The notes beneath the pieces were generated by a model, which was given only the letters and a program-made list of their open reading frames with translations, was not told the origin of the DNA and did no database searches. Below are positions 30,481 through 31,099 of a stretch of DNA of 64,000 nucleotides, piece by piece. The DNA is from Eledone cirrhosa (taxonomy: Eukaryota): contig OZ024751.1 of assembly GCA_964016885.1 (NCBI GenBank), positions 42,594,001 to 42,658,000 of the forward strand, read 5' to 3'. Numbering within the stretch: the first letter of the stretch is position 1; the number at the start of each line of letters is the position of its first letter. A program made the position numbers and the translations under genes.

Positions 30481-31099
30481 ATATGATAAAAATAGTCCTT
30501 CGTCAGTGATTTTCCAACCATCATTGGTATTTCATCGCATTAAAAATCAGATACCTCAGGTTGGTGCGAGCAATAAGCTAAAAAAAGTTATTGGGACCAG
30601 TAATTCGCGTAAGGCGAGGGGGACAAGTGAACAACATAGAAGGATAAAAACAAACCAAAGAAAGGAAATAAACAAGCAACATGGTAGTCCTGGTCAGCAT
30701 AAGCTGGGTGGATTTCAAGAGCGATTAGTACAGACGTCCGACGTGAGTGAGATGGAAGCAAGAAAAGGCCCACTGTTAGCCAAACGGGGGGAAGTGAGAA
30801 GGGGAGAAACAGAGAGTGAGTGAGTGGAAGTGCGAGGAAGCGGTCAGTCGAGAGAAAGTGTAACTGACAGAGGGGGCGAAAGAAGGTGAGAGAAACAGAG
30901 AGAGCGGGGAAGCAGTAAGAGAGAAACAGATAAACGCAGCCGAGGTAAATATATATAAAAAACATGAGAAGAAAGAAGAATACTGCGTGGTTTGCATATG
31001 GGTTACATATGATAAAAATAGTCCTTCGTCAGTGATTTGCCAACCATCATTGGTATTTCATCGCATTAAAAATCAGATACCTCAGGGTGGTGCGAGCAA

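Follow-up and report, generated by a model that had tools for sequence, protein, structure and literature searches.

Hammerhead ribozymes of the canonical types I to III share one set of core nucleotides arranged in a circular strand order, but the same core has also been described in an order that is not circular. In the type SGC hammerheads of Eckert et al. (2023; PMC10085705) the cleavage site comes first, followed by GAAA and then by CUGANGA, and cleavage was established in vitro and with compensatory mutants. According to the available parts of that report, type SGC is known solely from metatranscriptomes (583 sequences, none from the genome of a known organism), while hammerheads in the CSG order have been published from two metagenome sequences only. 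The published type SGC fold has a linker of typically 3 nt that connects stem I with stem II, a helix bridging these two stems at their other ends, the 5' strand of stem II directly after CUGANGA, and a chain that is open at stem III. Its authors flagged the zero-nucleotide join of stem III to the stem I-II helix as puzzling, and noted that the crystal structure places the ends which are connected in the present motif at a great distance from each other. SGC-1, as read from its oligonucleotides, has stem III linked directly to the helix; the accessible portion of the supplement holds no match for "kink" or "K-turn". A 2026 paper (PMC13725137), in the part open to us, only cites the permutations.

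Two groups of retroelements provide the other points of reference. Naiads, a clade of Penelope-like elements (PLEs), were described by Craig et al. (2021; PMC8557442) as being without canonical hammerheads, although eight Naiad families, Naiad_Ovul and Naiad_Esco among them, are marked "HHR_half_core" in the portions of that work at hand. Non-LTR retrozymes (PMC7229834; Li et al. 2026, 10.64898/2026.07.22.740005), as far as the consulted sections go, are non-coding head-to-tail repeats with one hammerhead per unit and a link to PLEs, and type I hammerheads have served both to define them and to search for them. Certain retrozyme hammerheads of animals act in dimeric form (PMC7229834), and in the Li et al. 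preprint only one of nine tested retrozyme dimers cleaved. In the literature we could cover, mostly outside subscription journals, neither animal genomes nor Naiads were described as containing hammerheads of SGC or CSG order.

The motif and its copies

The window analyzed here is a stretch of 64,000 nucleotides from Eledone cirrhosa (assembly GCA_964016885.1, contig OZ024751.1, positions 42,594,001 to 42,658,000), rich in microsatellites and drawn from an assembly of 3.0 Gb. A sequence-only reading had placed hammerhead segments on the minus strand at 30569-30499 and 40433-40362, and the letters bear this out. Copy 1 has C17 at 30550, GAAA at 30533-30530 and CUGACGA at 30506-30500; the second copy has C17 at 40414 and CUGAAGA at 40369-40363, with its stems swapped as claimed and G-C instead of A-U at position 10.1-11.1. 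While these segments stood, the proposed ends of the motif did not: the full predicted domain is larger (30495-30597), taking in a closing helix, GUCC/GGAC (30597-30594 with 30498-30495), and a hairpin (30593-30571) that had been missed. Two more copies had gone unnoticed as well: a third one at 31021-31095, and a partial one of fold-back form at about 13918-14068. The loci are as follows.

30495..30597, minus strand: full predicted ribozyme domain of copy 1, with SGC core order, a four-way junction at stem II, a candidate kink-turn, and a three-way junction where the tips of stems I and II meet
31021..31095, minus strand: upstream tandem copy of the motif, 5'-truncated inside hairpin Pb; predicted site 31076/31075
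30481..31100, minus strand: host insertion of about 1.2 head-to-tail monomers with a 526-nt period, 5'-truncated, lying between microsatellites
40359..40460, minus strand: ribozyme domain of a second subfamily, with a 2n = U candidate kink-turn and G10.1-C11.1; predicted site 40414/40413
about 40332-40577, minus strand: host copy of the 40.4-kb ribozyme domain
13918..14068, plus strand: fold-back partial copy of a third subfamily, an inverted 5' piece joined to a copy without the cleavage-site block

A stem-agnostic SGC descriptor requiring at least five pairs in stems I and III finds three sites in the window (30550, 31076 and 40414), compared with an average of 0.0 over 100 local dinucleotide shuffles; with four pairs the figures are four sites versus 0.01. 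Across the genome, a strict motif pattern gives 8,905 exact matches against none in the reversed control, and a pattern freed of the GAAA, CUGANGA and position 17 requirements gives 9,250, again against none. Among 100 listed matches to this core-free pattern, both cores are intact in 86 by hand count and the other 14 each carry a single change; all 100 have C or A at position 17, as do all of 123 parsed sequences. Because copies decay neutrally after insertion, the informative point is that the subfamilies differ in their stems and not in the core.

Comparison with the Rfam hammerhead models, which the earlier reading had proposed, shows that the motif fits none of them. No hammerhead or twister match was returned for the motif region at E values up to 10, none appears among 150 of the 199 matches listed for the whole window, and at nine loci nothing reaches the gathering score of either class. 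The motif-family pattern found no match in viral contigs; its single match in a metagenome contig is taken as chance because the stems are absent. Four contig sets from one study show the presence and variants of the motif family. With a complete core that both stem I and stem III abut, the window motif is very probably a hammerhead ribozyme.

Relation to type SGC

The sequence-only reading knew of no description of this topology, but the order of site, GAAA and CUGANGA is that of type SGC. With HRIMA-1 and type SGC at large, as described in the available parts of PMC10085705, the window motif shares the core order, the complete core, a short linker that ties stem I to stem II (UAA or UUAA here), a helix connecting these stems at their other ends (Pd) and a short connection by which stem III reaches that helix. 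It differs in three respects. The chain is open inside stem II, where a four-way junction closes it; a kink-turn-type loop ties both strands of stem III to the helix; and the 5' strand of stem II, together with one strand of Pd, has moved to the 5' end. Block C is interrupted, in that CUGANGA is followed by N10.1 only and then by bases whose pairing partners lie at the 5' end (P0), and we therefore regard the motif as a variant of type SGC and not as a member of HRIMA-1. Nor does it belong to types I to III, given its strand order and the absence of an Rfam match. In essence, we infer that the periphery of the fold is a circular permutation of that of the published SGC ribozymes: the topology is known, while the periphery and the setting appear to be new.

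Predicted fold and covariation

The minimum free energy (MFE) fold of 30600-30484 yields P0 (GUCC/GGAC), Pb, Pd (CCAACC/GGUUGG) and stem III, and on this scaffold stem I and Pc (UCGC/GCGA) are pseudoknots. The nested MFE energies are unremarkable (z of -1.3 for 30600-30484, and -1.6). The elements of copy 1, all on the minus strand and listed from the 5' end, are these.

30594..30597, minus strand: 5' strand of P0, GUCC, pairing with 30495-30498 to close the domain; present in the MFE fold, with a G-C to A-U swap in 7 of 23 rows
30571..30593, minus strand: hairpin Pb of the four-way junction; five of seven pairs changed on both sides
30565..30569, minus strand: 5' strand of Pc, UCGCA, the distal stem II, pairing with 30535-30539; 86% of cells paired, two of five pairs compensated
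30559..30564, minus strand: 5' strand of Pd, which ties the tips of stems I and II, pairing with 30514-30519; 95.6% of cells paired, five of six pairs compensated
30556..30558, minus strand: non-bulged strand of the candidate kink-turn (3n, 2n, 1n = U, G, A)
30550..30555, minus strand: 3' strand of stem III, with U16.1 and C17
30543..30549, minus strand: 5' strand of stem I, pairing with 30507-30513; six pairs robust and the seventh often unpaired, six of seven compensated
30540..30542, minus strand: linker from the strand of stem I to that of stem II; 122 of 123 sequences read UAA, the linker being an anchor of the search pattern
30526..30539, minus strand: 3' strand of Pc, N11.1, G12-A13-A14-A15.1 and 5' strand of stem III
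30520..30525, minus strand: bulged strand of the candidate kink-turn, a 3-nt bulge followed by G1b, A2b and U3b
30495..30519, minus strand: 3' strands of Pd and stem I, the CUGACGA core (30506-30500), A10.1 (30499) and 3' strand of P0

For covariation, 113 parsed copies were clustered into 25 groups, and 21 of the 25 representatives were aligned with two window copies, four single copies being dropped. Across these 23 rows 91.9% of 804 cells are paired and 20 of 35 pairs are compensated, against at most 46% and at most eight pairs in slid controls; such counts are not probabilities, and the cell counts overstate independent events because the rows are related, besides being partly selected by stem III sequence. 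Compensated pairs number one of four in P0, five of seven in Pb, two of five in Pc, five of six in Pd, none of five in stem III and six of seven in stem I, the score of P0 being lowered by two rows of the 40.4-kb subfamily that were left misaligned by one column. Compensation is also seen at the single 10.1-11.1 pair, yet it is paired in only 16 of the 23 rows. The earlier reading is upheld in its hammerhead of non-circular strand order and in its stem I pseudoknot, six of whose seven pairs change on both sides.

None of the stem III pairs is compensated in the 23 young representatives; the swaps seen in this stem belong to other families, and one copy reads GGCAU/AUGCC. An older family (36 pattern matches, none in the control; 17 copies aligned) keeps all spacings in its majority sequence while reading AUGGU/ACCAU in stem III, UCAACC/GGUUGA in stem I and CUGGAA/UUCCAG in Pd; Pc is fully swapped as well, and there is no Pb inside the junction. 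The proposal that TCGCA/TGCGA takes the place of the distal stem II is supported. In the 40.4-kb copy the partner of TCGCA is TGCCT, a copy-specific mutation in a subfamily that reads TGCGT. Judged from sequence comparison, the predicted fold comprises seven helices, five of them with clear compensatory change among young subfamilies.

Next to the core, stem II is weak: one pair, with the remainder supplied by the upstream strand via the four-way junction. That pair, 10.1-11.1, had been proposed from two copies; among 123 distinct sequences it is standard in 111 and takes four forms (A-U 43, G-C 35, G-U 21, U-A 12), the other 12 being non-standard. In an alternative register, N11.1 could pair with the base before Pc. 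A weak base of stem II is seen too in the minimal type I motifs of PLEs, with U-U and C-A among the examples available from Craig et al.

A candidate kink-turn

Between Pd and stem III, two helices flank a 3-nt bulge followed by G-A and A-G pairs, so that the kink-turn signature seen by the earlier reading is upheld as a signature. Kink-turns of the box C/D type, as presented in the accessed parts of PMC4382518 and PMC5061560, have the same 3-nt bulge and tandem G-A/A-G pairs, then U-U, but sit in snoRNA, whereas the candidate here lies inside a hammerhead fold. In 123 sequences, L1 is A in 90, U in 24, G in six and C in three, and L2 is A in 121; positions 1b-2b are GA in 118, part of the loci having been gathered with a pattern that requires this GA. 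Of the 123, 82 have the complete tandem G-A/A-G, 33 (the 40.4-kb subfamily) carry U at 2n, and in eight the tandem is broken. Among the 82 standard sequences the 3b-3n pair is never Watson-Crick, being U-U in 50, U-G in 13, C-U in seven, A-G in six, A-A in four and otherwise in two.

The 40.4-kb copy does lack one kink-turn G, as had been remarked, but this carries less weight as a caveat than was feared: 2n = U is a fixed state of its subfamily, and Kt-23 likewise has a 2n = U variant, U being the commonest natural substitution at that position there according to the sections of PMC5061560 at hand. The loop also persists in the older family despite the swap of both flanking helices. We consider it fairly likely that the loop functions as a kink-turn.

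The carrier retroelement

The motif forms the 3' part of a non-coding unit of 525-640 nt that targets TA and can occur in tandem. Head-to-tail spacings, of which there are 14 among the matches listed, run from 445 to 637 nt, with 526 nt in the window, and examination of the unit for coding frames recognized none. Relatives of copy 1 are 98-99% alike (best 40 of 1,361 candidates) and those of the 40.4-kb subfamily 95-97% (best 40 of 1,199). Insertion marks were scored on the first 30 sites among the listed matches to the core-free pattern: (TA)4 or longer occurs within 123 nt downstream at 26, and three of the other four are upstream tandem members. The same sites include three tandem pairs, 5' ends lying 9 to 897 nt upstream, and inverted 5' pieces at four. 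The motif adjoins the fixed 3' end of the insertions. As traces of cutting the 5' junctions say little, since among about 25 distinct sites in the 100 matches listed only about one lies at the cleavage site; they pile up instead at TA microhomology in the linker.

The carrier resembles non-LTR retrozymes in being a non-coding tandem repeat with one ribozyme per unit, but has SGC order where these have a type I hammerhead, and a type I descriptor would therefore have missed it. On the present analysis the carrier is likely to be a non-autonomous, retrozyme-like element of Penelope type with a cis-acting, self-cleaving SGC-order hammerhead at its 3' end.

A probable origin in Naiads

Like the carrier, Naiads in the available text of PMC8557442 insert at (TA)n and show truncated 5' ends, incomplete tandems, 5' copies in inverted orientation and a short 3' tail, marks that are also common to other PLE clades and agree with the retrozyme model; they differ in carrying an ORF, with GIY-YIG at its N-terminus and RT at its C-terminus, where the carrier has none. 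The accessible portion of the Naiad supplement was searched for four core spellings, with 55 of 62, 30 of 43, 15 of 23 and 15 of 25 places inspected; excerpts were read by eye with nothing computed, and line breaks can hide matches. On this basis at least 19 of 54 Naiad consensus sequences end in SGC- or CSG-order hammerheads. Ten records have the SGC order with the same junction layout: Amil, Aacu and Anas, which are near-identical corals, Obim, Ovul, a degenerate Esco, and four others in supplement parts 9, 12, 12 and 19. The Bfor record has the SGC order with a weak stem I, and two more (parts 16 and 17) have it in other layouts. The CSG order is found in six: Naiad-1, -2 and -3_Nbra and three others in parts 13, 15 and 16. 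All six CSG records (File S5, PMC8557442) have the three stems and a long stem I-II helix at their end, and three of the six belong to Nippostrongylus, to go by the following header. In bivalve Naiad records, among the places inspected, no SGC or CSG motif was seen.

By eye, the 3' ends of Naiad_Obim and Naiad_Ovul show the same helices, Pb loop and kink-turn signature as the carrier family, with UGA opposite the 3-nt bulge, GA and U, and the older family of E. cirrhosa has stem III and bulge sequence in common with them. A coral record has all six helices intact, its core G-C pair being supplied by the upstream strand. These consensus ends are independent of our search patterns because the records were chosen by protein homology.

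Naiad reverse transcriptase (RT) remnants in the E. cirrhosa genome give 91 matches, old and mostly with stops, the best non-self ones at about 65-71% over most of the query. The F-spelling of Naiad motif A has no exact match, and its one-mismatch matches show no excess over the control; the Y-spelling has three exact matches, which lead to an old Naiad-type family. Loci L164, L165, L196-L204 and L244-L273 hold old Naiad-type RT remnants with DKA and YDFSTLYT-like motifs, diverged from one another by about 25-30%. In the four 3' regions of heavily decayed remnants that were aligned no stems were recognizable, the genome yielded no intact Naiad that carries the motif, and no GIY-YIG/RT ORF is joined to the motif in the loci examined. 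With the Naiad remnants decayed and the repeat copies 95-99% alike, the young repeat may now be moved by another TA-targeting PLE.

PLE pieces with canonical type I hammerheads are fused to some carrier copies (L010, L028 and L091). L091 (1700-5600) and L092 are a duplicated locus in which pieces of the SGC repeat flank a reversed PLE, joined to it without a TA spacer. That PLE has a canonical hammerhead, with 14 bases from C3 onward in common with the 3' end of the SGC motif, and template switching by one RT is a possible explanation. The locus was rejected as an autonomous partner, the copies being 2.9 kb apart and enclosing an unrelated reversed PLE; RT/GIY-YIG pieces near the carrier in L098 and L102 were set aside as separate insertions.

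The shared 3' ends make a Naiad origin of the carrier motif quite likely. A broader proposal, to which we give only a slight preference, is that non-circularly permuted hammerheads are standard in Naiads and their short derivatives (SGC in cnidarians, ctenophores, arthropods and cephalopods, CSG in nematodes), reaching thousands of copies per genome, and that the box C/D-type kink-turn of cephalopods solves the stem III-to-tip geometry and could make cleavage dependent on 15.5K. They would have gone unseen because searches used type I or III descriptors.

Other hammerheads and neighbouring elements

Seven further hammerhead motifs in the window have the canonical type I order, are mostly minimal and belong to other repeat families (14425, 23817 and 37981 on the minus strand; 3834, 30106, 43343 and 45659 on the plus strand); an eighth match, at 38377, has a broken core. 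Another repeat, at about 30360-30460 on the plus strand, faces copy 1 across a TA run; a related repeat at L098 forms the 3' end of a PLE that has a GIY-YIG frame, and it apparently contains a type I hammerhead whose stem II is long. Elsewhere in the genome there are three more old SGC-order families (L117/L120/L238/L241/L243; L114/L121; L112/L123), the first two without a kink-turn signature, and a separate pattern search brought up another SGC-order family, represented by three copies.

Insertions that fold back almost perfectly and terminate in TA runs lie at 12534-13189, 47295-47796, 24006-24199 and 45822-46009, and are typical of the inverted 5' copies of PLE-type elements. An open frame of 1,153 aa at 57746-61207 (plus strand), with endonuclease, RT and zf-RVT, is apparently an intact non-LTR ORF2. 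A 42-bp tandem array at 56063-57075 is open in several frames on both strands. The window also holds a tRNA-Arg(CCG) gene at 33189-33264 (plus strand); the CCG anticodon is uncommon in animals.

Proposed mechanism and alternative readings

In the fold we propose, stem III and the core would stack under a composite stem II made of the 10.1-11.1 pair and then Pc. Pd would connect stems I and II at their distal ends through a three-way junction, thereby replacing the loop-loop contact. The kink-turn would lead the chain, as it leaves the base of stem III, back into Pd, and the opening inside stem II would be closed by P0 together with hairpin Pb. Cleavage is predicted between 30550 and 30549 in copy 1, and is expected at this site because published SGC ribozymes with the same order, linker and helix cleave there, in the parts of PMC10085705 consulted. 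Transcripts through tandem copies would be cut once per repeat to give unit-length RNAs, possibly circularized, which a Penelope-type RT/GIY-YIG enzyme would copy into (TA)n. The ribozyme itself probably arose at the 3' end of a Naiad element. It is highly probable that the motif family encodes a cleaving hammerhead, whether acting as a monomer or assisted by a dimer or by protein.

How far such assistance is needed is where the strongest alternative lies, namely a hammerhead that folds poorly alone and requires a second copy, in a strand-swapped dimer, or 15.5K/Snu13 bound to the kink-turn. Box C/D kink-turns with U-U at 3b-3n, the state of 50 of the 82 standard sequences, do not fold in ions alone and need protein, according to the kink-turn literature accessible to us; the separation of the joined ends in the crystal structure, the frequency of tandem copies and the dimeric action of some animal retrozyme hammerheads point the same way. 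Against this, published SGC ribozymes whose links are short need no protein to cleave as single constructs; 3n = G or 3b = C, either of which allows a kink-turn to fold in ions, is present in 27 of the 82; and kinking can be driven by tertiary contacts too, as the same partly available sources indicate. We consider obligate assistance unlikely.

Less likely again is a hammerhead-derived fold that no longer cuts and persists because the Penelope-type RT uses it for recognition or priming, or because it offers a platform for protein. Such a role would suit the position of the motif beside the fixed 3' end, the conservation of Pb, P0, kink-turn and linker as well as of the core, and a 10.1-11.1 pair that is not the canonical G-C in most subfamilies. 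The core, however, is the same in all subfamilies, and the variation at N7 and H17 is exactly what the chemistry of hammerheads permits, and canonical PLE hammerheads themselves have U-U and C-A at the base of stem II in the accessible text of Craig et al. A different RNA class, or a chance look-alike amplified with a neutral repeat, is very improbable: although UUUUUAAUGC and GUCCCAA come near the twister consensus blocks and Rfam gives a weak match to the snoRNA snR66 (22 bits; gathering score 65; E of 0.85), the GAG after P2 and the second of two pseudoknots are absent by eye and Rfam gives no twister match, the UAA linker is replaced in Naiad versions seen in the available supplement, and compensated changes in 20 pairs with the shuffle controls exclude chance, so that twister and snoRNA identities were both rejected.

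Significance

What is new is the presence of an SGC-order motif in the genome of an animal, where its exact pattern matches number about 9,000 and where it ends a retroelement with Penelope-like insertion marks. For a self-cleaving hammerhead of Naiad descent, as we favor, the finding links two open points from the available literature: the "core" and "half-core" cases among Naiads (Craig et al. 2021) and permutations known only from the environment (Eckert et al. 2023). It also suggests the kink-turn as one answer to the geometric question raised by Eckert et al., in the portion of their report at hand, of how stem III meets the helix. The rich natural covariation of a high-copy family provides ready substrates for cleavage assays and structural work. 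Surveys based on type I and III descriptors, the finding implies, undercount the ribozymes and retrozymes of animals, and the argument that PLEs can spread successfully without a ribozyme is weakened.
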